DNA of 64,000 nt from Candidatus Leptovillus gracilis (GTDB taxonomy: Bacteria; Chloroflexota; Anaerolineae; Promineifilales; Promineifilaceae): assembly GCA_016716065.1 (NCBI GenBank), contig JADJXA010000025.1, forward strand, positions 292,863 to 356,862, written 5' to 3'. Shown here in pieces: positions 34,434-60,309 of this stretch. The position numbers were made by a program, and so were the translations under genes. Positions within the stretch are counted from its first letter, which is position 1, and each line of letters begins with the position of its first letter. The notes under the pieces were generated by a model that made no database searches, had not been told where the DNA came from, and saw only the letters and a list, made by a program, of their open reading frames with translations.

Positions 34434-34679
34434 ATGTCTACAGCCAAGAATCTCGAGAATTTGGGCGCCAAACTCAAAGCAATTCGCAAACACTTGGGCT
34501 ATAGCCAGGAAGATATGGCAACCGCTGTGGGTAAAACGGGTAAGTCCCGCCGGTCACGGGTGCATGAGTGGGAGAAAGGGCTGCGGGAGCCAGAACTTTC
34601 ATGTTTATCTGCCTATGCCCGGCTGGCGGGGATCTCCGCCGACGATCTGCTTGATGACAGTGTGGAACTTCGTTTGTGA
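34434..34679 (+). CDS. XRE-family HTH transcriptional regulator
   Basis: LGAKLKAIRKHLGYSQEDMATAVGKTGKSRRSRVHEWEKGLREPELSCLSAYARLAGISADDLL is the Cro/C1 HTH pattern. Confidence 0.8.
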   Translation: MSTAKNLENLGAKLKAIRKHLGYSQEDMATAVGKTGKSRRSRVHEWEKGLREPELSCLSAYARLAGISADDLLDDSVELRL

Positions 34680-34725
34680 CAGCCATCCCCGACGCCCAGA
34701 ACTAAAAAATAACAAACGTGAACCT

Positions 34726-35979
34726 ATGCAATTCTATCTACCGAACTTTGAAGACCTTGTTGATCCGGAATACGATTTTGAGAAGGATGACTATTCACCA
34801 AAACGGAAACGAAACGGCCGTTTCCAGCACGACCAATATGCCCATGAATTTTTCACAGAACCAATCTTTGACGGAATGCTCGTTTCCAAAACAGTTGTGA
34901 CGCCCTCTGTAGAACAGCGCATACAAACGAGTGGGAATGTCCACCGCTTTTTCCGTTTGGCAGAACAAGTTCCGGTAATGGGTGACTGTGGCGCATTCTC
35001 CTATTGGGATAAAGAAGAGCCACCGTATACCGTAGCCGAAATCCTCGATTACTATGAAGTGATGGGCTTTACCTATGGTGTAGCCCTGGACCATCTCATC
35101 TTTCCCACCATGTCCGAAGCAGAAAGAGATCGCCGCCTAAAAATCACTCTTGATAATGCGCAGGAGTTTCTGAGGAAACGCAACGACTATGACTACAAAG
35201 TCATCCCTGTGGGGATTGCGCAGGGGTGGGATGCCGATTCGCGTGCAGGTAGTATCCGGCAGTTATTAGATATCGGCTATAGCCATCTGGCTATCGGTGG
35301 CATGGCACGCAGCAAAGACCAGGAAATCATCCAAACGTTGCAAGCAATCCATCCCATTCTGCAAGAAAACCAGTGCGTACAAATGTTACACCTGTTCGGG
35401 GTTGCTCGACTATCACTGATTTCGGATTTCATTCGCTATGGAGTCACAAGCGCTGACAGCGCCTCGCCCATGCGCCGGGCGTTTCTTGGTACAAGCCAGG
35501 ACAACTACTGGACAGTAGGCGAAGAACGTTATGCAGCCATTCGAGTTCCAGAGGTAAAGGAAGGAGGGGCCAGAAAGCGCGGCGTAGACTCCACCGGTGA
35601 AGTTGCAGCCAAAAATGGCATGACAGTAATCAAAATGAAGGAAATGGAGCAGGAAGCATTGCGCCTGTTGCGTGACTATGATGCCGGAATTGCGGAGTTA
35701 GAGGAGACATTAACGGCCGTTCTTGCCTATGACCAGCTTCATGGCGACAAAAGGAAACATGAAGCAGCCTACCGGCGCACACTTGCCGACAAAGCATGGC
35801 AGAAGTGTAACTGCTCCATTTGTAAGAAATGGGGAATCGAAGTCATTATCTTTCGCGGCAACAATCGAAATAGACGTCGTGGATTTCATAATGCCTATGT
35901 CTTTTACCAACAATTTCAAGGGCGTGTAAAAAGCGAGAGTTCCAATGCAGGAGCTACACAGTTGAAGTCTATTCCCTGA
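34726..35979 (+). CDS. dpdA: DpdA-type DNA-guanine transglycosylase (TGT superfamily, long bacterial form)
   Basis: N-terminus MQFYLPNFEDLVDPEYDFEKDDYSP...RFQHDQYAHEFF...FDGMLVSK and GDCGAFSY match my memory of bacterial DpdA. Also HLFGVARL, DSASPMRRA and the TGT-type zinc motif CNCSICKKWG...FHN. The ORF is open from 34564, but that stretch overlaps the XRE gene. Confidence 0.75.
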   Translation: MQFYLPNFEDLVDPEYDFEKDDYSPKRKRNGRFQHDQYAHEFFTEPIFDGMLVSKTVVTPSVEQRIQTSGNVHRFFRLAEQVPVMGDCGAFSYWDKEEPPYTVAEILDYYEVMGFTYGVALDHLIFPTMSEAERDRRLKITLDNAQEFLRKRNDYDYKVIPVGIAQGWDADSRAGSIRQLLDIGYSHLAIGGMARSKDQEIIQTLQAIHPILQENQCVQMLHLFGVARLSLISDFIRYGVTSADSASPMRRAFLGTSQDNYWTVGEERYAAIRVPEVKEGGARKRGVDSTGEVAAKNGMTVIKMKEMEQEALRLLRDYDAGIAELEETLTAVLAYDQLHGDKRKHEAAYRRTLADKAWQKCNCSICKKWGIEVIIFRGNNRNRRRGFHNAYVFYQQFQGRVKSESSNAGATQLKSIP

Positions 35980-36104
35980 ATGAGTCACATCTATTACGAA
36001 CTACTGACTTTGACCAACTGTGAAATTGCCAATTGAATAAAACGAATCTCTCAAACGAGACACCCTTTCTGAAACACCATTAATAGCATTTTCGGGGCAA
36101 TGTA

Positions 36105-39100
36105 TTGATGCTTCATCTTAAAGAGTTGCGCACACGAATGTTTATAAAAGGAATCCCCATTGATGGGATGCCACCTGATATTGCTGTAGAGATTCTTGAT
36201 CTTCAATGGCAAAGCCCTGACGAATTAGTGGTAACGTGTCAGGATCCGAGGAAGCGTCTTTATAAAGTCATCCTCACTTCATCTGACAAGTGCCAACTCC
36301 AATGTACCAATGTTTTTTCCCTCCCATGGAAACTGTTACCTCAAAGCCCTGGTCAAGAAGAAATGAGAGTTTTAACAAAAGCCGAAAAAGGCCGTCTGAA
36401 TCAGTCTCTCTTTAGAGCTGGCTTTGTGCATAAGTGGGACAAGGACGGTGGCTACTCGGATTGGACACACACAAGCACAACCTACCGCATTTTCCATGCG
36501 AACTCCCATCAGTCCTTTATCGTGCTTTTAGAGCCAGAAGCAACAACTTCCGCTCAACAAAAGCCACAAACTGCATTACATCACGACATCGGTGATTTGC
36601 CGAAACTAACACCCCCTGAGCAAAAATCACCACCAACAACAACCGCTGATTTTGCCTCCCATCCAACACCTCATCCCTATCTTGCACCAGGCATGTATGT
36701 CCGCATCCCCTTTGACCTTGTGGAATCACCTGGCGAATACCGCGATTATCGCATTGGGCAGTTGGTAGACATCAATAGTGTCGCAAACTCTGCTCGCATA
36801 AAGTTACAAACCTATTCACCTGGACAGCCGGTTGCACAAGAAATTGCCGAGCGAGATATTGCACACATCCATCGTTGTCATATCTTGCCAGAAACATTGT
36901 TCATTCATGCGGAAACTAAGCAAACAGGGCAAGTTCTCCTACCGTGTCTAACAGAGTGGGAAGAAGGAAAACTATGCGACTATTACGTGGAGATAACTGG
37001 TCAAATAAAACGCCTATCAGAAGAGAAGATTTTGGTGGCTTCGCACCGGCAATCCCCTCACCCCCTCGAACAACTTAAACGATATGAACTTCACCATCCC
37101 AGATGGAAGACTGAACGAGATCAACTTATCGAAAGTTATGCCGAACTGCACGCAGCAACCTATGGACTAGAAGATTTGGTTGGTTCTCGGATCATGCTTT
37201 TACCTCATCAAGCCGAAGTTGTTGCAACTGTTCTAAGCGATGAAACTTGCCGCTATATCTTGGCCGACGAGGTTGGTTTAGGGAAAACCATCGAAACTTG
37301 TGTCATTATTAAAGGACTGTCGCGCCGTCATCCGGGATTGAAGACGCTCATTGTGGCGCCAGCGTCTCTAGTAGAACAGTGGCACTTTGAACTGAACAAT
37401 AAGTTCTGGCTCGATTTTGTCCGGGATGACCAACTGAATTTATTGCATCTACCGAAAGACTGCCCAGGCATTATCGTCAGCACAGAGAAACTTTCTAATG
37501 ATGGGCAACTGACTCTCTGGCTATCAATGCAGGAGTGGGGTCTACTGATTGTTGATGAAGCACACCACCTCCATAAACGGCCGTCTCTCTACGAGCGTAT
37601 CTACCAACTTAGCAGCGATGCCGAACGTGCCCTTATCCTATCAGCTACCCCCATTCAACGTCGGGGGGATGAATATCTGGCATTGCTCAAGCTGATGTAC
37701 CCAGAGCGTTACAGCGCGCTAACGCACACCCAATTTAGTCATATTTTGCAAGCCCAACAAACCCTTCGGCAAACAATTGCGTATCTGGCTCAAGCCTTAA
37801 CACCTGATGACTTTGATTTGGCTGAATTCCTTAAAGAGATGGAATTGATAACTGACAAGCTAAAAGAAGATGAGGTCTTACAACAGCTTGTTACGCAAGC
37901 CGCAGCGCAAACTTGCCTGGATGCTCAACTAAAAAGTGCCAAAGAAGCAATTAGTTACGTGAGCGAAAACTACCGGATCGAGAGTCGCATGATCCGTAAT
38001 CGACGGGTCAATTTGAATATCGAATTGCCTAAAAGAGATGTGGATACCAGCTTCAGTTATTTGCCTGAAGCAACGGAAGTCGAATTGCTAAACCAGTTAC
38101 ATGATTATATTGACTTCATGTTAACAGAACTCAAGGGCGAGACAAAAAAAAGTCTGGGGCTGGAATACTGTCGTGTCTTATTGCACAAAGCCTTTAGCAG
38201 CCCCCACAGTTTAGAAAGTCTTCTGAAAGAACGACAAAAGATCCTCCATTCGCCTCAAAAAACTTTGACCAACGCGGTAAGTAACAGCTTGTTAACATTA
38301 GCCCCACCCCGTCAAGAAGCAAAACGCATACAAACTTTGTTGACGGTCGTTCCCGTTCTGGCAGGAGAAAGTGACTGGGTAAATAATCTACTGTGGCTCT
38401 GCGGAAACTGGCGCGAGCAAACAGACACCATCTTAGAGTCTTATATTACTGGCAGGAGCAGTGCTAATTCAGGCCATCGATTAGTCCGGGTGTTACGGGC
38501 CATACAAAATCAACTACAAAAGCACCCCGCGTCCAAAATTGTAGTTTTTTCTGCCTGGACCGAAACCTTGTTAGCATTGTTACCCCATCTGACCAAACAC
38601 TTGAGAGCAAGACGCGGGCGCGTCGCACAGTTTCACTGCCAGATACCATCTGAAGATCTGCAAGAACAGGCTGACTTGTTCCAATCGCAGGACGATTATC
38701 ACATTCTTTTATGTGATGAGTTGGGGGGAGAGGGACGAAATTTCCAGATAGCTGATGTTATTGTCCATATAGACATCCCTTGGACGCCAGCACAGTTAGA
38801 GCAAAGAATTGGCCGTGTAGATCGTTTGGGCAGAACTGGAAAGGTGGTTTCCATTGTGTCTTATGCCCACGAACAAATCGAACAGGACTTATTCCGTATC
38901 TGGGAGGACGGGTTTAACCTCTTCACACATTCTATGAGCGGGCTTGAAATTGCTCTGGAAAGCGTCTTGGACGATCTACTATCTGCTATGGAACATAACT
39001 CGCGTGACAGCCTTATAAACCTGTTGCCAGCAATGCTAGCCAAAGCAAAAGAATTACGGAAAGCAGTTGAGGAGGAACGGTATTTTGAAGAGAACGCCAT

Positions 39101-40130
39101 CAACCATCGCCAACGGGATGAGTTCCAGAAATTAAGTGAAAAATATCGTGATGGTTCAAAACTCGGCCGCTCATTCACCAGTTGGGCATCAATGGCGGGG
39201 TTGGAAAACTCATATAATCGCCTAAAAGATACCGTGATGTTCTTTCCTAAAAAATTCAACCAAAAAAGCATGGTCAATGCCAAGTTTGTTACCCCGCCCA
39301 ATATGGAAGAGGCACTTCGCCGCTCTGGACGAACGCATAATCTAGTAATCACCGGGACTTTCAATCGAGATGTTGCTGTACAACGAGAAGACCTGGTCTT
39401 TTTTGCCCCAGGCAATGACCCATGGACAGATGGGATTGTCAGGAATGCGCTTGAGGCAGATCGGGGCCGTAGCTGTGCTATTTTGCGCAAAACTGACTTA
39501 CTTGCTACCCCCTGGCAAGGAGTGGAACTTCTATATCAGATACAGGTGAATCCTCGACCACTGTACAAAGCCGGTCACTCACCCATCCATTTGTTTCAAG
39601 CTCAGGGGTATCTTTTCCTCCCTACTTATCGTGTGCTGGTTTCTGTTGACGGAGACGTTATTACTCGTTCGCATCCTGCTTGGGAAGCAATTACTACGTA
39701 TTCATTCAGCTCAAGTTATGGGGACATACATCTGGGTAAACGAAGTGGCCCACGCAGGATCGTTTTATTGAAAGAAGCTTTTCCTCCAGATATTTGGGAA
39801 GATGTGCTGGTAAGAGCTGTGAGTGCGGCAAACACAAAGCTCATGGAGGAATTCGACTTCACACTAGAAGTTGCTGAAGAGGCCGCAGAAGATTTTGAAC
39901 GCAAACTGCTAGGCTTACGCGCCTCTCGCTATTGGTTTAATCAAATCTATGGCCCGGAAACGATACCTGGCGCCATAGATTTAGAGGCGCACCAGCAAAT
40001 TGCTAACGGATTAATTGAAGGAATTCGCCATCCACTAATTCAGCTAGAATCCGCTTGCTTTTGGTGGCTATGTCCTACACAAGATTATGAATCATTACTT
40101 CAACGCACTACAAGAATTGCTGCTAGCTGA
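36105..40130 (+). CDS. dpdE: SNF2-family helicase (DpdE-like)
   Basis: LLPHQAEVV...LADEVGLGKTIE (motif I), LLIVDEAHHL (motif II), LILSATPIQ (motif III), CDELGGEGRNFQ and QLEQRIGRVDRLGR (motifs V/VI). The N-terminal 350 aa are unassigned. The symbol is by position and size analogy to the Salmonella Montevideo dpd cluster. Confidence 0.7.
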   Translation: MMLHLKELRTRMFIKGIPIDGMPPDIAVEILDLQWQSPDELVVTCQDPRKRLYKVILTSSDKCQLQCTNVFSLPWKLLPQSPGQEEMRVLTKAEKGRLNQSLFRAGFVHKWDKDGGYSDWTHTSTTYRIFHANSHQSFIVLLEPEATTSAQQKPQTALHHDIGDLPKLTPPEQKSPPTTTADFASHPTPHPYLAPGMYVRIPFDLVESPGEYRDYRIGQLVDINSVANSARIKLQTYSPGQPVAQEIAERDIAHIHRCHILPETLFIHAETKQTGQVLLPCLTEWEEGKLCDYYVEITGQIKRLSEEKILVASHRQSPHPLEQLKRYELHHPRWKTERDQLIESYAELHAATYGLEDLVGSRIMLLPHQAEVVATVLSDETCRYILADEVGLGKTIETCVIIKGLSRRHPGLKTLIVAPASLVEQWHFELNNKFWLDFVRDDQLNLLHLPKDCPGIIVSTEKLSNDGQLTLWLSMQEWGLLIVDEAHHLHKRPSLYERIYQLSSDAERALILSATPIQRRGDEYLALLKLMYPERYSALTHTQFSHILQAQQTLRQTIAYLAQALTPDDFDLAEFLKEMELITDKLKEDEVLQQLVTQAAAQTCLDAQLKSAKEAISYVSENYRIESRMIRNRRVNLNIELPKRDVDTSFSYLPEATEVELLNQLHDYIDFMLTELKGETKKSLGLEYCRVLLHKAFSSPHSLESLLKERQKILHSPQKTLTNAVSNSLLTLAPPRQEAKRIQTLLTVVPVLAGESDWVNNLLWLCGNWREQTDTILESYITGRSSANSGHRLVRVLRAIQNQLQKHPASKIVVFSAWTETLLALLPHLTKHLRARRGRVAQFHCQIPSEDLQEQADLFQSQDDYHILLCDELGGEGRNFQIADVIVHIDIPWTPAQLEQRIGRVDRLGRTGKVVSIVSYAHEQIEQDLFRIWEDGFNLFTHSMSGLEIALESVLDDLLSAMEHNSRDSLINLLPAMLAKAKELRKAVEEERYFEENAINHRQRDEFQKLSEKYRDGSKLGRSFTSWASMAGLENSYNRLKDTVMFFPKKFNQKSMVNAKFVTPPNMEEALRRSGRTHNLVITGTFNRDVAVQREDLVFFAPGNDPWTDGIVRNALEADRGRSCAILRKTDLLATPWQGVELLYQIQVNPRPLYKAGHSPIHLFQAQGYLFLPTYRVLVSVDGDVITRSHPAWEAITTYSFSSSYGDIHLGKRSGPRRIVLLKEAFPPDIWEDVLVRAVSAANTKLMEEFDFTLEVAEEAAEDFERKLLGLRASRYWFNQIYGPETIPGAIDLEAHQQIANGLIEGIRHPLIQLESACFWWLCPTQDYESLLQRTTRIAAS

Positions 40131-42708
40131 AAGCCCACAATTTGCAAACTTTCAGCACAATCTTAGAAATAAGCAGCAGAAGTTAATTGGAATTGAACTG
40201 GCACAGAGCCATGTGTTATTGCGTGCATCCTCGGTTTACCAGGCGTTCATTGAAAATCAAGCGGGTACAGGAGATTTAGGCGTTCTCCTGCGCCAGGTAA
40301 TGCGCGTTTTTCATGAAGAGATGATCCTTAATAAACCAACATGGAAATCATTAGAAAAACACCAGCATCAAATGGGCTTGCGTCTTGTAGACGAAGATAA
40401 CGGACGAGTTCGATTACGGGCTTTGCCTTGGGAATCTGCCTGGCTAAACGACACGAATAATATTGACCAGCTTGAAAACCGCAGACCTGATATATCAGTA
40501 CCCGGTGATGGTCTGCTTTATGCTTTGTCGAATGGCAAGTTTTGTACATATCAATCAGAAGCCCAGAAAACGGCCGTTGTCACTTCTCTTTTCGCCCCTC
40601 CTGGTTCGACAACCCTAATCACCCTGCCCACTGGCGGCGGCAAGAGCATGTGCATCTTACTGCCTGCCTGGTTTGAATCTAGCGGCGGCCGACGCGCCGG
40701 GGGGACTACGCTGGTCATCGTCCCGACTGTGGCCCTGGCTTATGACCAACAAGACAATGTGCGCCCTTACTTTAACCCGGCGAATGATGCCTATAAACCG
40801 TACAGCCTTACCAGTGATACCACAAAAGAAACCCGCGCAATTATTTACAAAGGGATCAGCGAAGGTACGATCCCCATTTTATACACTTCGCCAGAAGCGC
40901 TTTTGTTAAACCCGGTTCTATATCACACCTGTTTGCAGGCGGCCGCTAACGGCCATTTACGAAGGTTTGTCATAGATGAAGCGCACTTGGTTGATTCTTG
41001 GGGGGCCAGTTTCCGCACCGAGTTCCAACTATTAGGGGCCTATAAGCGCAAACTATTAGAAGCCTCTCAGGGACAATTACGCACATTTTTACTCTCGGCC
41101 ACCGTTTCGTACCAGAGCGAAAAAACGTTGGCGGAATTTTTCGCGCCAGACTCCAGTTTATCTTCGGTGTTAGCCAATCAGTTACGGCCTGAGCCTGGCT
41201 ACTGGTTTCATCACACCCGACACTTTCCGCTACAACGGGATCGCGTAATAGAAGCGCTTTACCATCTACCTAGACCAGCCATTCTCTATGTCACTAAACC
41301 CAGCCACGCTCAACATTGGGTGCGCATGTTGCGCGAGCAGGGCTTCAAGCGAGTTGTGGATTTTACGGGACAAACAGCGGGCGAAGAACGTCAGCACATT
41401 CTAGCCCGTTGGAATCGTGACGAAATTGACATACTTGTGGGCACATCCGCCTTTGGTTTGGGCGTAGATAAAGGGGATGTGCGCACCATCATTCATGCGA
41501 CGTTACCGGAGAATATTGATCGATATTACCAAGAAGTGGGGCGGGGGGGACGAGATGGATGTAGCAGTATCAGCCTTCTGATTAGTAAAGATGATGATTT
41601 TGATTTGGCTTTCAGTATGACCACCAAATCGCGTATCACCATTGAGAAAGCCTGGTTACGCTGGCAGGGCATGTGGCAAAGCTCTTTGCCATTTGGGCAA
41701 ACTACCGATATGCGCCTGATTAACCTCAATGCCAGACCTACTTACAATCAGGAGATGCGCGAAAGCGAGGCCAATCGTTATTGGAATGAGCATATCTTAC
41801 TATTCATGCAAAGAGCCGGTGTCCTTTCCATTGAAGATACACGCCCCAATGAAACAGCGCCAGAGCCCGATGACCAGAAACAGGAATCTTATCAGGACAA
41901 TTTTTGGGTGCTGGTACGCATCAGAAATGACCAGATTGTAAACGACGAAGTTGCGTTTGAACGCCTCATGGATGAGCAACGCGACTTAGAAAAAGAGTCC
42001 ATTACCCAAAACTTGAATGCGCTGAGACAAGTGGTTGAGACACAAGCCCCAATGCAGGCTTACCATTGTTTGGGGCATGATTTTGCTGGTTTGTATCCGT
42101 ACACGGCCGTTGCCTGTGGCGGTTGTTCATACTGCCGACAAAACAAACAGGAACCATACGCACAGACCTTACGCGCCGAGGTTGAACCAGGTGATTGGCC
42201 TGCTTCCCCGGTTCGACTCGACGCCAATTTACAGCGGCAACTAGGCGAGCGGCAAAGTCTGATTGTCGCTTGGGATACGGAAAATTTGGCCGCTTTTGCC
42301 CCTGATTTGATAGCCTCGCTGGTTGAAGCGGGCATGGAGCAAATCGTTTTACCCGACAATCTCTTGGATGACCCAATTTGGGCGCAGAATCTGGTCAAAA
42401 AGTTGGCGCGTCATAAAGATAAACGGCAGCGGCTGGTAGGCGCTCGGTCAGTCGAACGGCACGGACTTTTCCCGCTGGCAACAGCCGTTTTTTACCCCCG
42501 ACAAGACAAACTTATTGACGCGCTTTATCGTGCGCTCCAAACAGAATTCCAATCATATTTGGGAATTACGCCCCTCATTCATGTGGTGCATCAATCGGCA
42601 TGGCTGGCGCGGGAAAACGGCCGTTTTCTGGAGCGGGTAAACGGCCTGCAATTAACACCGGATGCCCTCAAAAAGATGCTGGTCAAATCCCAAACATCAC
42701 TCTATTAA
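40087..42708 (+). CDS. dpdF: RecQ-like DEAD/DEAH helicase (DpdF-like)
   Basis: TLPTGGGKSMC (motif I), FVIDEAHLV (motif II), LLSATV, VGTSAFGLGVDKGDVRTIIH and YYQEVGRGGRDG. Overlaps the previous gene by 44 nt. Confidence 0.7.
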   Translation: MNHYFNALQELLLAESPQFANFQHNLRNKQQKLIGIELAQSHVLLRASSVYQAFIENQAGTGDLGVLLRQVMRVFHEEMILNKPTWKSLEKHQHQMGLRLVDEDNGRVRLRALPWESAWLNDTNNIDQLENRRPDISVPGDGLLYALSNGKFCTYQSEAQKTAVVTSLFAPPGSTTLITLPTGGGKSMCILLPAWFESSGGRRAGGTTLVIVPTVALAYDQQDNVRPYFNPANDAYKPYSLTSDTTKETRAIIYKGISEGTIPILYTSPEALLLNPVLYHTCLQAAANGHLRRFVIDEAHLVDSWGASFRTEFQLLGAYKRKLLEASQGQLRTFLLSATVSYQSEKTLAEFFAPDSSLSSVLANQLRPEPGYWFHHTRHFPLQRDRVIEALYHLPRPAILYVTKPSHAQHWVRMLREQGFKRVVDFTGQTAGEERQHILARWNRDEIDILVGTSAFGLGVDKGDVRTIIHATLPENIDRYYQEVGRGGRDGCSSISLLISKDDDFDLAFSMTTKSRITIEKAWLRWQGMWQSSLPFGQTTDMRLINLNARPTYNQEMRESEANRYWNEHILLFMQRAGVLSIEDTRPNETAPEPDDQKQESYQDNFWVLVRIRNDQIVNDEVAFERLMDEQRDLEKESITQNLNALRQVVETQAPMQAYHCLGHDFAGLYPYTAVACGGCSYCRQNKQEPYAQTLRAEVEPGDWPASPVRLDANLQRQLGERQSLIVAWDTENLAAFAPDLIASLVEAGMEQIVLPDNLLDDPIWAQNLVKKLARHKDKRQRLVGARSVERHGLFPLATAVFYPRQDKLIDALYRALQTEFQSYLGITPLIHVVHQSAWLARENGRFLERVNGLQLTPDALKKMLVKSQTSLY

Positions 42709-52609: not shown

Positions 52610-54351
52610 CCACTGTAACCTTTGCCAACCCTGATCAATACGCCTTTGCTCAGGAGTTTGTCCGTCCTCTTGTTAATCAGGGCATTCGCGCCATGGGCGA
52701 TCCTCATCAGCTAACGCTGACCACAGATCACGCCGCCGTTAACCTGCTGTTTCAGCGTCTGGCGAAAACAAATGCCGCCATATTGCCTTACTTGGGAAAT
52801 CGTTCGGATCAATGGTTGCTAGTTGGGCAAGACCGTCGCGCCCTGGATGAAATGTTGGCGCGTGTGACCGCCTTTGTCATTCCTTCTTACGCTGAATTTG
52901 GCGATGGGGCACGCTTTGCCGAACTTTCTCTCTTTGACCCGCAAAAGAACATACTGAACCAATTGGGAGCGCAACTGTACAATCTTGGTTACTACAAGTG
53001 GGAGTCGTCCCCGAGGTACCGCGAAACAATTCTTGCCCGGCTATCACTGTGGCTCAAGTTGGAAGAAATCGAACCGTCCCTTGAACTGCCTCCTCAGTAT
53101 GGGTACCGGGACCTGTATCAACTATTTACGCAAGCATTGAGTGTTAAAAACTGGCCGACGGCCGCAAATGTTTTGTCTGAGATGCGCCGGCTCAATCTGA
53201 CAACCGCCGAAAACCTGCAATTCTTGCATGTTCAATGGTTAGCTGAACAACAAAGATGGCAAGACATTTGGGATGATCCAGATTTTGCAATGCTCGCCAG
53301 GTTAAGAATGCCCCGCGATGTACGGTCGGCCATGTTGACCACTTTCCATCATGTGAACCTGCTGGCTTTAGAACGAGCGGGGCAATGGGAAACGGCCGTT
53401 GCCATCTTCCAAGAGATGCAAGGGCGTTTAGGTACATTACTGGTAGGACGATTTGGCGTTGCGCAAGCTCCCGTTCTGCGCGTTTTTGGTTATCAGGCAC
53501 TACTCAACAACGATGCCACCACATTAGAAAGTCTCCTAGCTGAGGCTTCAGATTTAGAGACGATTCACTGCCTCAACCAGTTAAAAAGCCGGCTGACCCC
53601 ATCAGACGCCAAAACGAAAGTTCTCACTCAAGACCCCTTACAACAAGCCATCCTGGCTTTAAAAGCAAATGATTACGACACCGTTATTCAAGCAATAAAA
53701 GCTATTGACGACATAACCGCCCGGGTTTTGTTGGCTATTGAAATCGCCTATCACAGCCGTGATGATCTGCTAATACAAGAAGCATGGACTATTTACCAGA
53801 GCCTTTCCCCAGAGCAGAAACAAGCGCTCATGGTCAACGGCCGTTATGTGGGTATTTACCTCGATTTCTTGCGGGAAAGTAGTACCGATCAACCAAAATC
53901 CATATGGGCCACAGAAGTAAAGAAAGCACGGGACGCCGCCTGGGATGGCGTGTGTGAAGTTGAATATTATCTGAGGCGTTTGGTTGAAGACCGGTATGCC
54001 AAGAAATTTGGAGATGTCTGGGAGTCTCGCGTTAACCCTGAATTACGCGAGAGATGGGCAGGCACACAAACTAAAGACGAAAAAACCTTCGCCCGCTATG
54101 GAATGCGAAAATCTTCACTGTTGGACTACACTTACATGGGTGATTTGGTCGGGTTAATCAACAATCAGTGGCCACTCTTTGAAGATATTTTGGGCGCAGG
54201 CAAGGCAGCCAAACAAGAGTTTACACGGGTGACAGAAGCGGTAATTCGTGTCCGAAACCCTCTGGCGCACAACAGGGATGTGCCTCTCAATGAATTACGC
54301 CGGGCTGATGTTTACTGTGCTGATTTGCTAATGCTTCTCAGGGGGCCATGA
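52606..54351 (+). CDS. Helical-repeat protein with a C-terminal Swt1-like HEPN domain
   Basis: The C-terminus carries YYLRRLVEDRY...MGDLVGLINNQW...EAVIRVRNPLAHNRDVPLNEL. The RNPLAH segment is the Rx4H HEPN motif. ATGA overlap with the dpdK stop. The ORF is open from 52588. Confidence 0.65.
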   Translation: MTTVTFANPDQYAFAQEFVRPLVNQGIRAMGDPHQLTLTTDHAAVNLLFQRLAKTNAAILPYLGNRSDQWLLVGQDRRALDEMLARVTAFVIPSYAEFGDGARFAELSLFDPQKNILNQLGAQLYNLGYYKWESSPRYRETILARLSLWLKLEEIEPSLELPPQYGYRDLYQLFTQALSVKNWPTAANVLSEMRRLNLTTAENLQFLHVQWLAEQQRWQDIWDDPDFAMLARLRMPRDVRSAMLTTFHHVNLLALERAGQWETAVAIFQEMQGRLGTLLVGRFGVAQAPVLRVFGYQALLNNDATTLESLLAEASDLETIHCLNQLKSRLTPSDAKTKVLTQDPLQQAILALKANDYDTVIQAIKAIDDITARVLLAIEIAYHSRDDLLIQEAWTIYQSLSPEQKQALMVNGRYVGIYLDFLRESSTDQPKSIWATEVKKARDAAWDGVCEVEYYLRRLVEDRYAKKFGDVWESRVNPELRERWAGTQTKDEKTFARYGMRKSSLLDYTYMGDLVGLINNQWPLFEDILGAGKAAKQEFTRVTEAVIRVRNPLAHNRDVPLNELRRADVYCADLLMLLRGP

Positions 54352-54386: not shown

Positions 54387-54581
54387 CTACTCAAACGGCC
54401 GTACCATCTCAATCTCATACACTTCCGCTAAAGAAACGTCTATCTCATCCAGTGCCTTCTGAACATCGCGTGTTATCAACGCCACTGTATCGGGCGCCAA
54501 TGTCACGTCAACTTCCTGCCCCTCCATTAACTCAAGCACGACGTGCAAAACCTTGTCTGGATTTGTATCAGCCTGTTTCAT
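54387..54581 (-). CDS. Small acidic protein (64 aa)
   Basis: Acidic sequence. ATGA overlap with the stop of the 852-aa ATPase gene indicates translational coupling. Confidence 0.45.
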   Translation of the reverse strand: MKQADTNPDKVLHVVLELMEGQEVDVTLAPDTVALITRDVQKALDEIDVSLAEVYEIEMVRPFE

Positions 54582-56935
54582 GTTTCTCGCTCCTTGTAAG
54601 ATCCTTCTTCTGTTTCAACCAGATGCAGACGTAAGGCGGTGTACACATCAGGCACTAACATCCGTATCTCTTCCTGTACTTCAGGAGACACTTCCGTCAA
54701 AGCCACGCTCTCACCACGTCGCCAGGCATCAACCACCCGACTTGTGCGATCTGATAAGGTTGTAGACCCCGCCTGTTCACATTGCTCGATATAACGCTGG
54801 ACCTGGCTCAATACGTTGGCTAACGGCCGTCCCTCCAGCAAATAATCCTTGTCTATTTCTGACACATCCATCTGGGCCAATCTGGAAAACCACGTCTCAT
54901 AAGGTACGTCTTTCAACAATTGCCCAATGAGAACACTATCGTAAAACCCCTGACGCAACTCGAAAAAATCATCGAACAGAAACTGAAATGCCTGCCAGCT
55001 CCTGTCACTGATTTGTTCATGCCGCCACCGATAACGCTGATGCGTGTCATTGACCCAACACCAGAAATCAGCAGGAAAACCTGGTAAACGGTAGGCTCCT
55101 TCGCCTTTGACAACCAGGGCAAATGTTTGCAATACTAACGCCAGCAGCTCCACCTTCATACCCAACTGAGTCTCAAGATCAAGCCTTACACGTTGGCGAT
55201 AGTTGTCTGCTGTCATTTGCAAAGAGACAAGCTCTTTGGCCGTCGCCAATTGTTCTTGTAACTTTTTCGTTTCACTGCCGGTCGCTGTTCCGTACCGGCA
55301 TAAGTCGAAAGCTATCATGCCAATATCGCGCGTTAGCGCGATGCCATCCTGTGCTTCATCTACTCCTTCCAGATAAATGGGCAGGCGCACATCCAGATAC
55401 GTTTTGCGCCAGCGTAGCGCGCCACGCGGCTTGGCTACATGCTCCCGATATATCCAGTCAATGGGCTGCACAGTGCGCAGCCAACGTGCCGCACCCTGAC
55501 GCAAGGACCGCAGCATCTGCCGGTTGACCGACTTGCCCAGAAGCCAGTCTCTAACAACCATCTGGCTTTCGTCCTCAATGATCAGGCTGCTCGTTGCTTC
55601 GCGGGGCTGGTAAAAACGAATGAGAGGCTCAACGGGAATTGCCCTTTGTTCTGCGGTAATGGCGAAGGCCAGCAGCAGAGTTCCCGGCAGAGCAATCAGA
55701 TTATCACTGTCTGGCTCCAACAAAGGTCCGTAAAACTCGCACAAACGCGCCAGACGACTGTCTTCCACTCTGGCGATATATTCCGGCCGAGCGAAATCTA
55801 CCAGCACATCCAACGGGTCTTCACCCGTGGTAGTGCGCCGCAATATCTCGTGCAGATACCGAACAAAATACCGTACTTTCCCTTTACCCGCAGGCAAAGC
55901 GCGGTAAATGCGCACCAGCGCTTCCCGCGTGAATGGGAAATAGGGCAGGCCCGGTACAGTGTTGTCATTCATCTCTGTCAGATAGCGAGATGCAAACTCA
56001 TCACAGTTTGCTTCGGTTAAGACGTAAGACTCCTTGCCCGTTTCATCTGACAACCACATTTTCCCGACACGGTCATCTATCGTGTCCAGATGGCTGATGC
56101 GCTGCAACAATCCGCGGCCGCGCAAGCTATCTTCAAACGCGGCTGGCGTTAGCCCTAAAACAACGTCCCAGTTACCTGCTTCCAACGTCAGGAGGTAATC
56201 CAGTAGATCAGTGGCAAAGATATTAAGGGATTGCACCAAATCGTCCACCAGCAAAAGAGGCCGCTGTCCCTGTTCTGCCTGACAATGATACGAAATACGC
56301 TGCATCGTTTCAGCCAGCGATAGACCTTCCAGCAGATGGTCACGAAAAGCGGTGGTCAATTGATGACGGAACTGTTCGTAAGCTACCGGAACGGGCAGGG
56401 ATGTTTCTCGAAGAATAGCCGACCAGGTTTCCTGACCAATCAGCTCCACGCCCATAGACTCGTCTATATCTCCTGGTTCAAACGCCAGGATTCTGTCTAC
56501 GTGTGGTTGCAGCGCATTCAGCAAGCGGTAGAAAAGAGCGTTGATCAGGTCATCCGAATCGAGAAGGTTCTCCAGAGCGAACAAGAGAATCATTTTAGTG
56601 ACCGTGCGCGATTTCTGCCGAGCGGCACTCCAGCGCTGTGTCGTCGTTTCGTTGAGAAACTGATTGGGCAACAAAGTCAGGAAACGATTGACGATGCTAA
56701 GAACATCTAGCTCATGGCGCGAAATACGCACCATTACCTGGCCCCGCTGCGGTTCTTCCTGGAGGATGCGCGTCTCTAGCCATTTAATCAGCTCCGATTT
56801 TCCCGATCCCGGGGCGCCGTACAACACCCAGATGCGGTTGCCCAAACCATTCTGTTGCCCCAGAACACGCCGCAGTAACGCATCCTCTGTCAACATTTCG
56901 AGATGGCCGTTAGGCTGATAGCTGCGCATGGTCAT
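54578..56935 (-). CDS. Large P-loop NTPase (unknown family; Walker A context resembles the DpdH-position protein)
   Basis: Walker A IWVLYGAPGSGKSELIKWLE and Walker B RPLLLVDDLV, followed by a long helical C-terminus. The ORF is open up to 57136, but that would overlap the upstream gene by 118 nt. MTMRSYQ at 56935 is chosen; the start is uncertain. Confidence 0.6.
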   Translation of the reverse strand: MTMRSYQPNGHLEMLTEDALLRRVLGQQNGLGNRIWVLYGAPGSGKSELIKWLETRILQEEPQRGQVMVRISRHELDVLSIVNRFLTLLPNQFLNETTTQRWSAARQKSRTVTKMILLFALENLLDSDDLINALFYRLLNALQPHVDRILAFEPGDIDESMGVELIGQETWSAILRETSLPVPVAYEQFRHQLTTAFRDHLLEGLSLAETMQRISYHCQAEQGQRPLLLVDDLVQSLNIFATDLLDYLLTLEAGNWDVVLGLTPAAFEDSLRGRGLLQRISHLDTIDDRVGKMWLSDETGKESYVLTEANCDEFASRYLTEMNDNTVPGLPYFPFTREALVRIYRALPAGKGKVRYFVRYLHEILRRTTTGEDPLDVLVDFARPEYIARVEDSRLARLCEFYGPLLEPDSDNLIALPGTLLLAFAITAEQRAIPVEPLIRFYQPREATSSLIIEDESQMVVRDWLLGKSVNRQMLRSLRQGAARWLRTVQPIDWIYREHVAKPRGALRWRKTYLDVRLPIYLEGVDEAQDGIALTRDIGMIAFDLCRYGTATGSETKKLQEQLATAKELVSLQMTADNYRQRVRLDLETQLGMKVELLALVLQTFALVVKGEGAYRLPGFPADFWCWVNDTHQRYRWRHEQISDRSWQAFQFLFDDFFELRQGFYDSVLIGQLLKDVPYETWFSRLAQMDVSEIDKDYLLEGRPLANVLSQVQRYIEQCEQAGSTTLSDRTSRVVDAWRRGESVALTEVSPEVQEEIRMLVPDVYTALRLHLVETEEGSYKERET

Positions 56936-57018
56936 GGGATAGTGGGTGCGCAAAAAGAGATCGGCGCCCAATAAATACCGTTGGTCGGCAGTGGGCGCAA
57001 AGATAGATAGGTTACTAC

Positions 57019-57789
57019 TCAAGCCCCACCCCCGTTGCAAAGAAGATAACGTAACCGCTGTTCCGCGAAATAGGGCTTGTTGGGTGCATCCTGATAAGGG
57101 CGCATTAAGATGTTTCGCTGCTGATGTAAGTACCACAACGGCTGACCAACTGCGTGCGCCAGGTTGCCGGTTTGTGTCTGGTGGGGTAAATAGCCCGCCA
57201 GGTGCTCTTCCAAAAAGTCCTGGATAAACCCCTCGCGTCTATCCCACACGACGAGAATTTCTTGTAACAGGGTGGGGGAATAAACGCATTGAAACCCATC
57301 GCCGATGCGTCGCCCTATACCCAGGTAAGCCATTACTCGTTTCCAGGAACGGATTTTTTCCTGACTGAGACCGCCTAACTCAGCGACAGGTCGCAACTTG
57401 TTCGCCTCGGTGTGAACGTCACTCACGTACAGATGATTCGGTTTGATAAAAAGCTCTTGTAGCAGCAGCAAGTACAACGAATCTAATTCGTGGTTAGGCG
57501 TGATTTTTCGACTGGCAAGCGCCTGCAAACGAGCAATCACGGTTAACCGGAAGGAGGTTGTTGGCCTTTCCGGTTCCCCCAGACAAAACCCATCGCGGTC
57601 TTCGATCAGAAAAGCGGCGACGAGAAAGGAGAGAGCGTCGTCAATGCTTTGGGGTGAAACAGCTCGCTTGTCTTTATAGTCTGGAAGACAGGCCTGATAA
57701 ATCGCCTGGCGCGAGACCGGCTTCGTATTCTGAGCCACAAAGGTGTAGACGACTTCCAGTTCTGGACCGGATACAGGACGAAATAGCAT
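57019..57789 (-). CDS. Hypothetical protein with an N-terminal wHTH-like segment
   Basis: LEVVYTFVAQNTKPVSRQAIYQACL...SIDDALSFLVAAFLIE looks like a winged helix. It is the first gene of the minus-strand three-gene operon, divergent from the short TGT-like gene. Confidence 0.5.
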   Translation of the reverse strand: MLFRPVSGPELEVVYTFVAQNTKPVSRQAIYQACLPDYKDKRAVSPQSIDDALSFLVAAFLIEDRDGFCLGEPERPTTSFRLTVIARLQALASRKITPNHELDSLYLLLLQELFIKPNHLYVSDVHTEANKLRPVAELGGLSQEKIRSWKRVMAYLGIGRRIGDGFQCVYSPTLLQEILVVWDRREGFIQDFLEEHLAGYLPHQTQTGNLAHAVGQPLWYLHQQRNILMRPYQDAPNKPYFAEQRLRYLLCNGGGA

Positions 57790-57883: not shown

Positions 57884-58783
57884 ATGGACTTCTACGTAAG
57901 TTGGTATCCCGGAGATCCCCTTTATCCCGTCTACGATCCAGATTGCGCCTTACTGGTGAGTATTACGTCGGTGGCTCAAGACTGGACAATTGATCGTCTG
58001 GCAACGCTTCCGCGCCGACTGCTGATAGATAGCGGTGGTTACCGCTTTGCGATTGCCCCTGACGATGCTTTATCACCCAAGCAAGTGCTACAAAGGCAAC
58101 TGGCGCTGCTGAACGGGGCGACAATTCCGACGATCATCTGCGCTCGTGATTATCCCCTACTCGACAAATCTATCAGCCCCAATGAGCGGGATAAAAGTAT
58201 TACCCAAACAATAGCCTTTGCTTATGAGCTAAAGACTCTTATTAACCAGAATGGACTGGAACACCACGTTACACCGATGGCCGTTATCCAGGGCAATGAT
58301 GAGGATTCATTGGCTTACTGTGCCAGAGAGTTGCAGGCTATCGGCTTTCCCTTGTACGGGATAGGTTCACTGGCGGAGTTACGAAAGCACAACCTGATTA
58401 TGGAACGAGTGAAGGTTGTGGCCAACATCATTGGCCCGGAGAAGCTGCACATCTTTGGTATCGGCGCAGTGCAAACAGCGCAGACTTTCCAGAAAATGGG
58501 TATCCACTCCCTTGATTCTTCACGACCGGCTAAAGCCGCCGCTTACAATGAGGTTCTTTACAGTAATCCCTATCGTCGTTTTGGGATTTTGGAACCTCCG
58601 TCAATTCCGCTAAAAGGTCGCATTGCGCCGCATAAACGATTAAGCGCTCCTTTGCACTGCCACTGCCCCATATGCCAGGAAGATGCAACACGGATATTGG
58701 GTGTCGGCAAGCGTAGCCATATCCGCGACCGGGCCTTGCACAACTATTACCATCTCAAAAAGGCTTTTCTTAGCCAAAACTAA
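57884..58783 (+). CDS. Short TGT-superfamily transglycosylase (second, phage-like DpdA-type paralog)
   Basis: LLIDSGGYRF (catalytic DSGG motif), AVIQGN, YGIGSLA, HIFGIGAV, LDSSRPAKAA and the zinc motif CHCPICQ...HNYYH. 299 aa. Confidence 0.7.
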   Translation: MDFYVSWYPGDPLYPVYDPDCALLVSITSVAQDWTIDRLATLPRRLLIDSGGYRFAIAPDDALSPKQVLQRQLALLNGATIPTIICARDYPLLDKSISPNERDKSITQTIAFAYELKTLINQNGLEHHVTPMAVIQGNDEDSLAYCARELQAIGFPLYGIGSLAELRKHNLIMERVKVVANIIGPEKLHIFGIGAVQTAQTFQKMGIHSLDSSRPAKAAAYNEVLYSNPYRRFGILEPPSIPLKGRIAPHKRLSAPLHCHCPICQEDATRILGVGKRSHIRDRALHNYYHLKKAFLSQN

Positions 58784-59003
58784 GTCCCTGCCATTCGTCC
58801 ATCTCACTGTTACTGCTATAATCAGTTTCATGCCGGTGGCAGAAAAGGGTTACACGACCCGTACCCGGCTTACCAAAACTGCGGTATTTTGTGCCCCGTT
58901 TCCTTTCTACCGCAACAAAGTCTTGGCTTGTCACAATGCCTGCTGCTGCTCCGGCAGTTGTCACGCAGTGGCAAGCGTCAGCACGACAAGGAAGTGAACA
59001 AAT

Positions 59004-59672
59004 ATGATAGATTCAGTCGTCATTGTCAGTGGGGGAATGGACAGCGTGACCCTGCTGCACTATTTGATCAAAATAGAAAAGCGTAACCCGGCGGTAATCA
59101 CCTTTGGTTACGGACAAAAACATGACAAGGAAATTGAGTACGCCAGGGCACAGGCAACCGCGCTTGGTTGCGAGAACCATCTGGTGCTAGATTTAGCGCT
59201 GCTGCGTCCGCTCTTTGCCAACTCGGCATTGGTATCACTGGAAACGGCCGTGCCCAACATCCAGGATGTTCTTGGCGATCCACAGCCACCAACCTATGTC
59301 CCTAACCGCAACATGATTTTCCTGGCTCTTGCTGCTGCTTTCGCTGAAACGCAAGACGTCAGCGATATTTTTTATGGCGCACAACGCCACGATGTATACG
59401 GATATTGGGATACGACTCCTCAATTCCTGGAGCAATTGAACCAGGTTTATAAACTCAATCGCCGAACGCCGGTGACAATCCTTGCTCCTTTCGTTCAGTA
59501 TTCCAAAGCAGATATTTTGCGTCAGGGTCTCGAAATGGGTGTGGATTACGGCCTCACCTGGTCTTGTTACGAAGGGCGCGAGATGGCTTGCGGCCAATGT
59601 CCCACTTGCGCCGAAAGACTCAAAGCCTTTGAGGAAATGGGCCTGATGGACCCCTTGCCTTATGCAGTATGA
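59004..59672 (+). CDS. queC: 7-cyano-7-deazaguanine (preQ0) synthase
   Basis: VVIVSGGMDSVTLL (PP-loop SGGxDS), FGYGQKHDKEIEYA, YVPNRNMIFL and the C-terminal zinc motif CGQCPTCAERLKAF. Confidence 0.9.
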   Translation: MIDSVVIVSGGMDSVTLLHYLIKIEKRNPAVITFGYGQKHDKEIEYARAQATALGCENHLVLDLALLRPLFANSALVSLETAVPNIQDVLGDPQPPTYVPNRNMIFLALAAAFAETQDVSDIFYGAQRHDVYGYWDTTPQFLEQLNQVYKLNRRTPVTILAPFVQYSKADILRQGLEMGVDYGLTWSCYEGREMACGQCPTCAERLKAFEEMGLMDPLPYAV

Positions 59673-59796
59673 TGGCGCGCCTTTTGGCAAGAGTGTCCCG
59701 ATTGTGATGTGCTTGATGATTGCCTGACAGCAGCAGTGATCTGGACACTCTCAACTTAGCGAAGCAAACCGAAACATAATTCTGAAGGAGAAAGGT

Positions 59797-60309
59797 ATGA
59801 TTTACGTTGTCATGTATCTGGTGGCGATTGTTCTGGCGAATTTGACGGTGGCCGCTTTTGGCCCCAACATGGTCATCATCAATGCTTTTCTGTTCATCGG
59901 GTTGGATCTGACAGCGCGAGACCGGCTACATGATGCCTGGCGGGGCAATCGTTTATTCGTGAAGATGGCTGCTTTAATCGCCGTCGGATCCCTACTGTCC
60001 TGGGTACTCAATCGTAACGCAGGACAGATTGCGCTGGCTTCATTCGTTGCTTTTGCCGCCGCCGCTACGGTAGACGCTGTCGTCTATCATGTGTTGGGCA
60101 AATACCCTCGTTGGTTGCGTATCAATGGCAGTAATATTCCCAGCGCTCTGGTTGATTCGTTGGTCTTTCCTACTTTGGCGTTTGGCGCTTTTCTGCCGTC
60201 TATTGTTTTGGGCCAGTTCATTGCCAAGGTGCTTGGAGGATTTGTATGGTCTCTGGTTTTTCGGTGGACAGAGCAGCGGACAATGGCTAAAGCCAAACAG
60301 CCAAGTTAA
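59797..60309 (+). CDS. yhhQ: VUT/YhhQ-family queuosine-precursor transporter
   Basis: A multi-TM 170-aa protein. ANLTVAAFGP, INAFLFIGLDLTARDRLHD and SALVDSLVFPTLAF match the DUF165/YhhQ pattern. Confidence 0.7.
   Translation: MIYVVMYLVAIVLANLTVAAFGPNMVIINAFLFIGLDLTARDRLHDAWRGNRLFVKMAALIAVGSLLSWVLNRNAGQIALASFVAFAAAATVDAVVYHVLGKYPRWLRINGSNIPSALVDSLVFPTLAFGAFLPSIVLGQFIAKVLGGFVWSLVFRWTEQRTMAKAKQPS

Follow-up and report, generated by a model that had tools for sequence, protein, structure and literature searches.

A putative DpdB-less, two-transglycosylase Dpd-family island in Candidatus Leptovillus gracilis

Few defence systems mark self DNA with a hypermodified base. Dpd is among them, and in Salmonella Montevideo its DNA-guanine transglycosylase, DpdA, requires DpdB for activity (PMC10164549). 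How might a Dpd-type island work when dpdB is missing and a second, shorter transglycosylase (TGT) gene is present? The question is raised by a 64-kb stretch of the Candidatus Leptovillus gracilis genome (Chloroflexota; contig JADJXA010000025.1, positions 292,863 to 356,862; hereafter the window), which holds at 33567–60309 a Dpd-family island of ~26.7 kb. On balance, we consider it probable that this segment is one mobile, DpdB-less, two-transglycosylase Dpd-family restriction–modification island, working in the five steps proposed below. Its genes run DpdC'–HTH–DpdA–DpdE–F–G–H–I–J–K–DpdD' on the + strand, followed by H' and G' on the − strand and by sTGT–QueC–VUT on the + strand, and all 17 island open reading frames (ORFs) are intact. 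A first-pass annotation of the same DNA had begun the island at 34434; it starts upstream, at 33567. The ORFs named there were all found with the sizes and order given, namely the + strand series, the convergent − strand set (256, 852 and 64 aa) and the TGT, QueC and VUT genes.

The Dpd genes and the absence of DpdB

The long transglycosylase, DpdA (34726–35979, + strand, 417 aa), is of the bacterial DNA-guanine transglycosylase type. It scores 435.9 bits against the NCBIfam equivalog NF041059 (cutoff 200) and 423.8 bits against the PADLOC DpdA model, and it aligns over residues 2–402, including the insertion Ins8, with the S. Montevideo DpdA structure 7UI4 (E 5.2e-86). Its start at 34726 is M55 of a TGT-like ORF at 34564–35979, and both the hidden Markov model (HMM) and the 7UI4 alignments begin there. 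Residues found by mutagenesis or modelling to be important in DpdA (Asp95, Phe99, Asp130, Asp256 and the CxCxxC zinc site; PMC10164549) are all kept as D95, F99, D130, D256 and the same zinc motif. H181 is replaced by Gln, the common state in DpdAs outside the enterics. The catalytic residues and the zinc site are likewise kept in all DpdB-less loci. That the long TGT-like protein might be a tRNA enzyme, a refuting outcome named in the first-pass annotation, is contradicted by profile scores: the tRNA-TGT models TIGR00430 and TIGR00432 give only 25–31 bits (~30) for DpdA and the short TGT alike, against cutoffs of 306–350, whereas DpdA passes its own equivalog cutoff. A scan of the genome contigs with DpdA, in which single-sequence patterns were strict, returned one locus.

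Downstream of dpdA lies the restriction operon, and as judged from protein profiles there is no doubt that it is of Dpd type. DpdE (36105–40130, + strand, 1341 aa; PADLOC DpdE, E 2.3e-92) is a SNF2/RapA-like helicase with the Pfam domains SNF2-rel_dom, Helicase_C and RapA_C and an N-terminal extension of ~200 aa, and DpdF (40087–42708, + strand, 873 aa; PADLOC DpdF, 565.7 bits, E 5.6e-170) is a superfamily 2 DEAD-type helicase. DpdG (42662–43597, + strand, 311 aa) reaches 78.4 bits against NF041064 (cutoff 80) and E 1.2e-13 against PADLOC DpdG, and its orthologues in related loci carry PF28110 DpdG. DpdH (43602–46814, + strand, 1070 aa; PADLOC DpdH, 272.4 bits, E 2.4e-81) is a P-loop, BrxC-like ATPase. 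The next gene (46811–47500, + strand) encodes a 229-aa coiled-coil protein that is syntenic with dpdI and matches NCBIfam DpdI at E 0.007 (16.4 bits, cutoff 150; its Paenibacillus counterpart, E 3e-7), so that we call it DpdI by positional orthology only. It is followed by DpdJ (47500–52095, + strand, 1531 aa), a YprA-family helicase that matches PADLOC DpdJ over residues 8–1528 with 1344.6 bits, and by DpdK (52100–52609, + strand, 169 aa; PADLOC DpdK, E 2e-47; Pfam PLDc_2), a phospholipase D (PLD)/HKD nuclease. The best PADLOC matches of DpdE, F, G, H, J and K are their Dpd namesakes, with DISARM, BREX and Druantia models far behind, and the order DpdE–K is that of E. coli, which bears out the match to dpdE–K that the first-pass annotation had proposed. 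From DpdG to DpdD' the genes are separated by 4-nt gaps or overlap by 1 or 4 nt, ATGA overlaps among them. Such tight packing makes translational coupling of the ~18-kb operon plausible, consistent with the earlier suggestion. A megablast search of the 20-kb operon against plasmids gave no match.

The first-pass annotation had missed dpdC and dpdD and had seen an extra HEPN gene at the end of the operon. The gene that immediately precedes dpdA in fact belongs to the DpdC family and occupies the place of E. coli dpdC. This protein, DpdC' (33567–34331, + strand, 254 aa), is assigned to the DUF6884/YaaA superfamily by Pfam match, position and fold. It has a GTG start inside a 296-aa ORF (33441–34331) and is 100% identical to the 254-aa protein P0001. 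It matches Pfam DUF6884, the Pfam family of DpdC (PMC12235509), with 43.7 bits (cutoff 30) and YaaA/DUF328 weakly, and keeps the CxxxK and LSAxxG motifs. The best PDB match of its AlphaFold2 (AF2) model (predicted local distance difference test, pLDDT, 91.7) is E. coli YaaA (5CAJ, E 1e-4). In Allocoleopsis, Paenibacillus, Picosynechococcus and Nostoc and in the metagenomic L035 lineage a DUF6884 domain is fused to the N terminus of DpdA, with four plasmids among the carriers, and the N terminus of the Allocoleopsis fusion matches PADLOC DpdC (E 7e-9). The 474-aa protein P0036, on a 1.7-kb contig, is a natural fusion of QueC (PF06508) with a DUF6884 domain 41% identical to DpdC', which ties the DpdC-like domain directly to the chemistry of 7-cyano-7-deazaguanine (preQ0) and 7-amido-7-deazaguanine (ADG). 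We write DpdC-like because direct similarity to the enteric DpdC is weak: by these features the protein belongs to the DpdC/DUF6884 superfamily, with a putative functional equivalence to DpdC.

The terminal gene of the operon, in the canonical last position, is identified as DpdD from its N-terminal ~400 aa. DpdD' (52606–54351, + strand, 581 aa, starting 6 codons downstream of the start of a 587-aa ORF) matches NF041061 through residues 52–442 (154.4 bits, cutoff 300; model positions 27–403 of 704), and PF28109 DpdD is on record for the exact protein (P0188). Residues 454–581 match HEPN_Swt1 (27.5 bits) and PDC-M34B (E 1.2e-14). The HEPN motif RNPLAH (Rx4H) is invariant in the DpdD' family, which comprises 16 clusters, and is absent from a 770-aa homologue (P0203); canonical E. 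coli DpdD yielded neither a HEPN motif nor a HEPN match. The C-terminal part of DpdD' (~130 aa) is thus a predicted Swt1-like HEPN domain in place of the canonical C terminus. In E. coli GE3 the island reads int–dpdC–dpdA–dpdB–dpdE–F–G–H–I–J–K–dpdD–queD, where the 283-aa 'hypothetical' protein upstream of dpdA scores 471.7 bits against PADLOC DpdC, so DpdC upstream and DpdD last is the normal layout. Between DpdC' and DpdA lies an 81-aa XRE-family helix–turn–helix (HTH) regulator (34434–34679, + strand; Pfam HTH_3, E 2.7e-9). It is kept in the related loci L001 (77% identity), L002 and L005, and is a candidate controller of the operon.

The whole array travels together. It is complete also in GCA_002754885.1 (L002 and L009) and in JGI metagenomes (L005 and L010), its left part, all that is retrievable, occurs in an Anaerolineae metagenome-assembled genome (L001, 72–88% identity), and its right part in L021 and L022; across these syntenic relatives, which represent at least three further genomes or metagenome lineages, amino-acid identity is 50–91%. 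Their flanks differ from one relative to the next and carry type IV secretion system/TraG genes, a resolvase or a transposase. The block is a conserved, mobile unit. With 16 DpdD' clusters and 63 representatives of G', this DpdB-less, two-transglycosylase Dpd subtype is rare.

DpdB, already known to be absent from ~8% of dpdA genomes, gave no PADLOC or NCBIfam match among the flanking ORFs and no tblastn match at E < 0.8. A DGQHR HMM, built locally from five DpdB/DndB sequences and scoring 267–624 bits on positive controls, found only noise among all six-frame ORFs (best E 0.23 in the window, 0.19 with the relatives included). In 46 metagenome loci, 337 kb in total, it had no match below E 1. 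These searches agree with the earlier observation that no recognisable dpdB lies between dpdA and dpdE, and DpdB appears to be truly absent from the window and its syntenic relatives.

The short transglycosylase and its partners

The second transglycosylase, sTGT (57884–58783, + strand, 299 aa), is a compact DpdA-like protein. The NCBIfam DpdA model gives it 64.5 bits, below the DpdA cutoff and above tgt_general (38 bits) and every tRNA-TGT model. It is without Ins8, and neither a PUA nor another C-terminal domain was found in its 299 residues. In two alignments of 40–43 homologues the general acid/base D49, the base-binding D89, Q136 and the zinc ligands are invariant or nearly so, and the nucleophile D211 is kept in at least 90% of the sequences; since its catalytic residues are conserved, sTGT is predicted to be active. 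Its AF2 model (pLDDT 92) is a compact TGT barrel with a template modelling (TM) score of ~0.76 to the Z. mobilis TGT, and a Foldseek search with it against the PDB returned the generic TGT fold only, in a list swamped by Z. mobilis entries. An origin as a captured phage DpdA (DpdA1–4) was considered and rejected: there was no PHROG match and no tblastn match in 50,697 phage records, and the best BFVD matches were to the generic TGT fold (TM ≤ 0.71, 11–20% identity).

Divergent from sTGT lies G' (57019–57789, − strand, 256 aa), which matches NCBIfam DpdG at E 1e-3 over residues 11–67 and, by hhalign, DpdG at E 8e-5 (probability 61%) over the C-terminal 93 columns. It is probably a DpdG paralog, and its family has 63 representatives among 1.84 billion proteins. 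H' (54578–57022, − strand, ~814 aa, with a TTG start at 57022 inside a maximal 852-aa ORF that reaches 57136) is a P-loop NTPase whose family aligns with the DpdH family by hhalign over 461 columns (probability 98%, E 1.5e-13), and its Walker A (GxxGxGKS) and Walker B (hhhhDD) motifs are invariant in 18 members. H' was always found beside G' and a short TGT. The first-pass annotation had treated the short TGT as a separate oddity behind a convergent three-gene operon; the convergent genes are paralogs of DpdG and DpdH that travel with it.

Downstream of sTGT, QueC (59004–59672, + strand, 222 aa) is a preQ0 synthase (TIGR00364, 183.7 bits, cutoff 150.3; Pfam QueC, E 3e-59), and the last gene (59797–60309, + strand, 170 aa) encodes a short-form VUT/YhhQ-family queuosine-precursor transporter (Pfam Vut_1, 54 bits, cutoff 27.2; TIGR00697, 31.8 bits, below its cutoff). 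The transporter is not truncated, because 171-aa orthologues hold the same place in L009 and L010. The earlier statement that queD and queE are lacking was borne out by tblastn with 8 references, which gave only noise (E > 0.1) within the window. No riboswitch, preQ1 or other, was detected upstream of queC or VUT (none at the gathering threshold in the whole window, none at E ≤ 1 in 57.7–59.9 kb), and promoter and terminator scans of 54.3–59.1 kb stayed near shuffle expectation and were uninformative. The remaining − strand ORF, of 64 aa (54387–54581), overlaps the end of H' by 4 nt. Across its length it shares ~88% DNA identity with L021, a conservation that does not extend into the neighbouring spacer. 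L009 and L010 leave no space for such an ORF, and it has no protein matches; from these comparisons it is lineage-specific.

The sTGT–G'–H' trio occurs in Chloroflexota, on a Paenibacillus plasmid and in metagenomes. On Paenibacillus pART37 its members are consecutive genes (sTGT, 33% identity; G', E 9e-19; H', E 3e-67), and they stand together in L011 and L018 as well. Of the metagenome loci, ~19 extend 0.8 kb or more beyond sTGT on its upstream side; every one of these has a divergent, adjacent G', followed by H' wherever the contig reaches far enough. Five loci of another lineage (the L035 type) place G', H' and a DpdC–DpdA fusion in one operon that is divergent from sTGT and convergent on DpdJ–K–D. 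In two short contigs, L027 and L053, a DUF6884 gene abuts sTGT.

DpdB and sTGT were never found together among the Dpd loci examined. DpdB without sTGT occurs in E. coli, Enterobacter, Methylobacterium, Allocoleopsis and Scytonema (by HMM) and in five alphaproteobacterial plasmids (by annotation). The converse, sTGT without DpdB, holds for the window and its relatives, Paenibacillus, Picosynechococcus (over a whole 38-kb plasmid), Nostoc, Natronosalvus and 46 of the 46 metagenome loci. Cyanobacterial plasmids with closely similar DpdC–DpdA fusions carry a DGQHR gene in some cases and a short TGT in others.

Locus L011 (747–6602) places homologues of H', G' and sTGT beside a 1951-aa YprA-like helicase (DEAD, Helicase_C, MZB/DUF1998) whose last 160 residues share 48% identity with the DpdD' HEPN domain, with no long DpdA within 10 kb. 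Such a locus could be a small self-sufficient system with the trio at its centre. Locus L003 (221–13976) has a different context: a DpdC'-like gene (40% identity) and an apparently frameshifted DpdA (57–64% identity) lie with QueF, two nucleoside 2-deoxyribosyltransferase-like genes, an HhH-GPD glycosylase and SDR, NERD, UvrD, PD-(D/E)xK and DpdJ-like helicase genes. This may be another 7-deazaguanine DNA system, possibly of a preQ1 type.

Proposed mechanism and rival explanations

Established here are the gene identities, the conserved gene order, the lack of DpdB and the fact that catalytic and Walker motifs are kept; the chemistry and division of labour that follow are predictions. As the family functions suggest, VUT/YhhQ and QueC would supply preQ0, with FolE, QueD and QueE provided by the host. 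By homology, DpdA would then swap guanine for preQ0 in the cell's own DNA, and DpdC' would turn the resulting deoxy-preQ0 (dPreQ0) into dADG (2'-deoxy-7-amido-7-deazaguanosine) or a related amide, the end product being uncertain because DpdC' is divergent. The distribution of the genes points to a third step, tentative and in our estimate somewhat more apt to be wrong than right, in which the sTGT–G'–H' trio takes over the ATP-dependent helper role of DpdB. The trio might do so alongside DpdA as its partner, or it might form a second transglycosylase unit, driven by ATP, for marking additional sites. Fourth, again by homology, DpdE, F, G, H, I and J together with the PLD nuclease DpdK would attack unmarked DNA, and the HEPN domain of DpdD' would add a predicted RNase arm. 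Finally, the XRE-type HTH gene between dpdC' and dpdA may control expression of the whole.

A broader generalization, that the trio is an ATP-driven DNA transglycosylase machine serving as an alternative to DpdB across at least four phyla, we regard as doubtful for now. If it were true, DpdG- and DpdH-type proteins would partner TGT-fold enzymes, as loaders or site selectors, beyond their role in restriction, and the two transglycosylases of such islands would leave two different marks or serve two sets of sites. A helicase-like role has been discussed for the ATP requirement (Gedara et al., PMC10164549), an idea in line with the DEAD helicases beside the cyanobacterial short TGT. In an unrelated system, BRC, another NTPase has been proposed to replace DpdB alongside a TGT (PMC12839542).

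Several observations weigh against a single island of this design. The source of the precursor is uncertain, as QueD and QueE are not in the window. DpdB could lie outside the 64 kb, though in canonical islands it is adjacent to dpdA. The DpdB-or-sTGT pattern comprises ~20 loci that are phylogenetically non-independent, and L003 has DpdA and DpdC' with neither DpdB nor sTGT in the available 14 kb. In L011 and L018 the trio has no long DpdA within the available 7–10 kb, so it may be autonomous rather than a helper of DpdA, and the cyanobacterial plasmids flank their short TGT with DEAD helicases, not with G' and H'. Lastly, DpdC' is matched by none of the PADLOC DpdC models and aligns weakly with E. 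coli DpdC (hhalign, E 1e-3, 45 columns), which leaves the dADG step uncertain.

The main rival to a single island is accordingly an autonomous trio: two independent systems, namely a Dpd system with a helper-free DpdA and a self-contained sTGT–G'–H' module with QueC and VUT, sharing only a preQ0 pool and a defence-island neighbourhood. Phage DpdAs function without DpdB (PMC10516641), the trio and QueC/VUT are transcribed apart from the Dpd operon, and the trio stands without a reachable long DpdA in L018 and in L011, there beside the HEPN-bearing YprA-like helicase, all of which speaks for this view. Against it, the trio accompanies Dpd restriction genes in loci of the window type, in Paenibacillus and in L035-type loci, where G' and H' even share one operon with the DpdC–DpdA fusion; G' and H' are themselves paralogs of Dpd components; and the mutual exclusion of DpdB and sTGT would be unexpected for unrelated neighbours. 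We judge two independent systems to be unlikely, and if the trio did prove unrelated to DpdA function, the island would be merely another modular variant of a known system. One could also imagine that the sTGT module is the sole DNA marker and that the long DpdA now has another task, such as recognizing unmodified target sites on behalf of the restriction machinery. All catalytic residues of sTGT are kept, its gene adjoins those for QueC and VUT, and the way in which Dpd tells modified from unmodified DNA is not known (PMC10164549). The long DpdA, however, keeps every catalytic residue and its zinc site in DpdB-less loci, which argues for continued catalysis, and the DpdC-like domain that processes what it makes remains its neighbour or fusion partner, so we think a repurposed DpdA very unlikely.

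The dependence of S. Montevideo DpdA on DpdB, cited at the outset, and the missing QueD and QueE might also indicate a decaying remnant, in which loss of dpdB inactivated modification and the other genes are drifting or have no joint function. Yet none of the 17 ORFs is broken, several genomes preserve gene content and order (50–91% amino-acid identity) along with the catalytic, Walker and HEPN motifs, and active restriction without modification would be lethal and would not persist intact; decay is highly improbable. That the helicase and PLD genes belong to DISARM or Druantia, with the TGT genes serving tRNA modification or queuosine salvage, has a probability close to nil. Secondary PADLOC matches to DrmD, DrmA, DrmC and DruE exist, and JGI pipelines call sTGT homologues tRNA-ribosyltransferase. 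Dpd models nevertheless win widely for every gene, which is how the profile comparison with DISARM and Druantia proposed in the first-pass annotation turned out (DpdJ, 1344.6 against 94 bits). Moreover, no methyltransferase lies within the island, DpdA passes the DpdA cutoff and fails those for tRNA-TGT, and sTGT, without a PUA or tRNA-binding domain, is linked to paralogs of DpdG and DpdH.

Neighbourhood and relation to known systems

The island has a G+C content of 0.491 (33567–60309), against 0.584 (1–24600) and 0.605 (60310–64000) in its flanks. The lower G+C that had been noted at first pass thus stood, and the uniform flanks of 60–68% did not: positions 26–29 kb are also low (0.45–0.47), so the surroundings are a G+C mosaic. 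No convincing direct or inverted repeats were found as island boundaries. Antirepressor-like (P22_AR_N/ORF6C) and ParA-like genes are common to the window (12668–14811) and L002 (5897–9650), and in L002 the ParA and P22_AR_N genes directly precede DpdC', which suggests a shared integrative-element backbone with the island as cargo. Because these genes abut DpdC' in L002, the type I restriction–modification operon (24.6–32.3 kb) and a 337-aa gene appear as insertions specific to this genome. The operon (24663–32283) consists of hsdM (24663–26165), hsdS (26162–27451) and hsdR (29110–32283), with a 385-aa EAD7 effector-associated-domain gene (27472–28629) between hsdS and hsdR; G+C is 0.45–0.47 in hsdS and the EAD7 gene versus 0.60–0.63 in hsdR. 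The 337-aa ORF (32431–33444, G+C 0.456), between hsdR and the island, has a C terminus (…IDVVV…YEIKT…) resembling a PD-(D/E)xK nuclease motif and appears to be a separate cargo gene. As a substitute for DpdB it was rejected, having no family match, a Cas4 match at noise level and no counterpart in any syntenic relative. Directly downstream of the island lies a 946-aa NACHT/STAND NTPase–FGE-sulfatase-like fusion (61117–63957, − strand); a SIR2–STAND–FGE-sulfatase protein likewise follows DpdD in L017.

The window is also rich in one 8-bp palindrome, ACGGCCGT, present in 81 copies against 1.16 ± 1.13 expected (dinucleotide shuffles, maximum 6); the next commonest 8-mer palindrome has 7. Its extended consensus is roughly GGAAACGGCCGTTTCC, with example sites at 34083, 34362, 34379, 42617, 53392 and 60998, and it lies in coding and non-coding DNA, at 0.94/kb within the Dpd island and 1.5/kb outside. 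It is frequent (0.27–1.0/kb) in the closest relatives only (L001, L002, L005, L009, L010, L021 and L022) and absent from every other locus compared. It resembles the highly iterated palindrome HIP1 of cyanobacteria and is apparently undescribed, as no paper on it was found in the literature searched. A tandem repeat at 19843–20106 (103-bp unit, 2.6 copies, 88% matches) has three such palindromes per unit, and short ACGAC-rich repeats lie at 19406–19472 and 19777–19834, just upstream of an FtsK/SpoIIIE-like gene (20151–22196, − strand).

Among known systems, DISARM has a SNF2 helicase, a YprA-family helicase and a PLD nuclease in common with the island. The likeness that the first-pass annotation saw in the core is real, but it reflects the common ancestry of DpdJ and DrmA/B that has already been published. 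Here a single helicase stands where DISARM has DrmA and DrmB, DpdJ gave no Pfam DUF1998/MZB match, and the predicted mark is a 7-deazaguanine, not a methyl group. The only methyltransferase of the window is the type I hsdM, and with none in 33.5–60.3 kb (no DrmMI or DrmMII) the island is not DISARM. BRIGADE, a haloarchaeal Dpd/ARMADA hybrid (bioRxiv 10.1101/2025.09.15.676423), likewise combines 7-deazaguanine genes, DpdG, a DpdH/I–BrxC-like ATPase, a YprA-family helicase and a PLD nuclease, and the haloarchaeal Natronosalvus plasmid locus has a long TGT, a short TGT, a ~300-aa gene and a BREX-type ATPase. BRIGADE, however, has ARMADA-like YprA helicases, usually two, and is reported from halophilic archaea only; the single canonical DpdJ (1344.6 bits) in a bacterial host of the Chloroflexota sets the island apart. 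BRC (BREX-Related Capture; PMC12839542) also places a TGT without DpdB or DpdC beside another NTPase, a STAND protein. It is built on PglZ, HerA/FtsK, DUF6079 and GNAT, all absent here, where a DpdH-paralog NTPase accompanies a full Dpd operon.

The literature searched held no description of the sTGT–G'–H' trio, of its distribution complementary to that of DpdB or of the DpdD–HEPN fusion, in keeping with the variant architecture first suspected. Detection rules that ask for dpdA plus dpdB (GATOR-GC, PMC12235509) and the current cutoffs of the DpdC and DpdD HMMs would miss or fragment this subtype. As a conserved DpdB-less form, in which paralogs of DpdA, DpdG and DpdH make up a tight module, it offers an experimental handle on why DpdA needs DpdB and on the roles of DpdG, DpdH and DpdI, and the cyanobacterial relatives, with DpdB or a short TGT beside the same DpdC–DpdA fusion, provide a near-isogenic comparison.

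The closest likeness among unstudied loci is to plasmids of Paenibacillus sp. 37 (pART37, NZ_CP043762), Picosynechococcus and Nostoc, which have a DpdA of 42–45% identity, no DpdB, a second, short TGT, and QueC with VUT. On pART37 the order is sTGT–G'–H'–DpdJ–DpdK–DpdD-like gene, then DpdE–F–G–H–I–J. In all of these plasmids DpdC is fused to DpdA and in none is there a DpdD–HEPN fusion; pART37 differs further by two DpdJ copies and a full queC/D/E set, and the Picosynechococcus and Nostoc loci by DEAD helicases that flank the short TGT in the absence of G' and H'. YhhQ and partial preQ0 genes were already known from dpd islands. The canonical Dpd system of S. Montevideo and E. coli (dpdA–K; Thiaville 2016, Yuan 2018, Gedara 2023) agrees with the present island in the catalytic residues and Ins8 of DpdA, the order DpdE–F–G–H–I–J–K–D, a DpdC-family gene directly preceding dpdA, an incomplete preQ0 gene set with a YhhQ-type transporter inside the island, and mobility. 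The island departs from it by lacking DpdB and by having an HTH gene that separates dpdC' from dpdA, a DpdC' that DpdC HMMs miss, a HEPN domain in place of the C-terminal part of DpdD, a ~200-aa N-terminal extension of DpdE and the added sTGT–G'–H' trio. With DpdB lacking and DpdC and DpdD matched only in part, the island belongs to the Dpd family in a broad sense, on the strength of DpdA together with DpdE–K.

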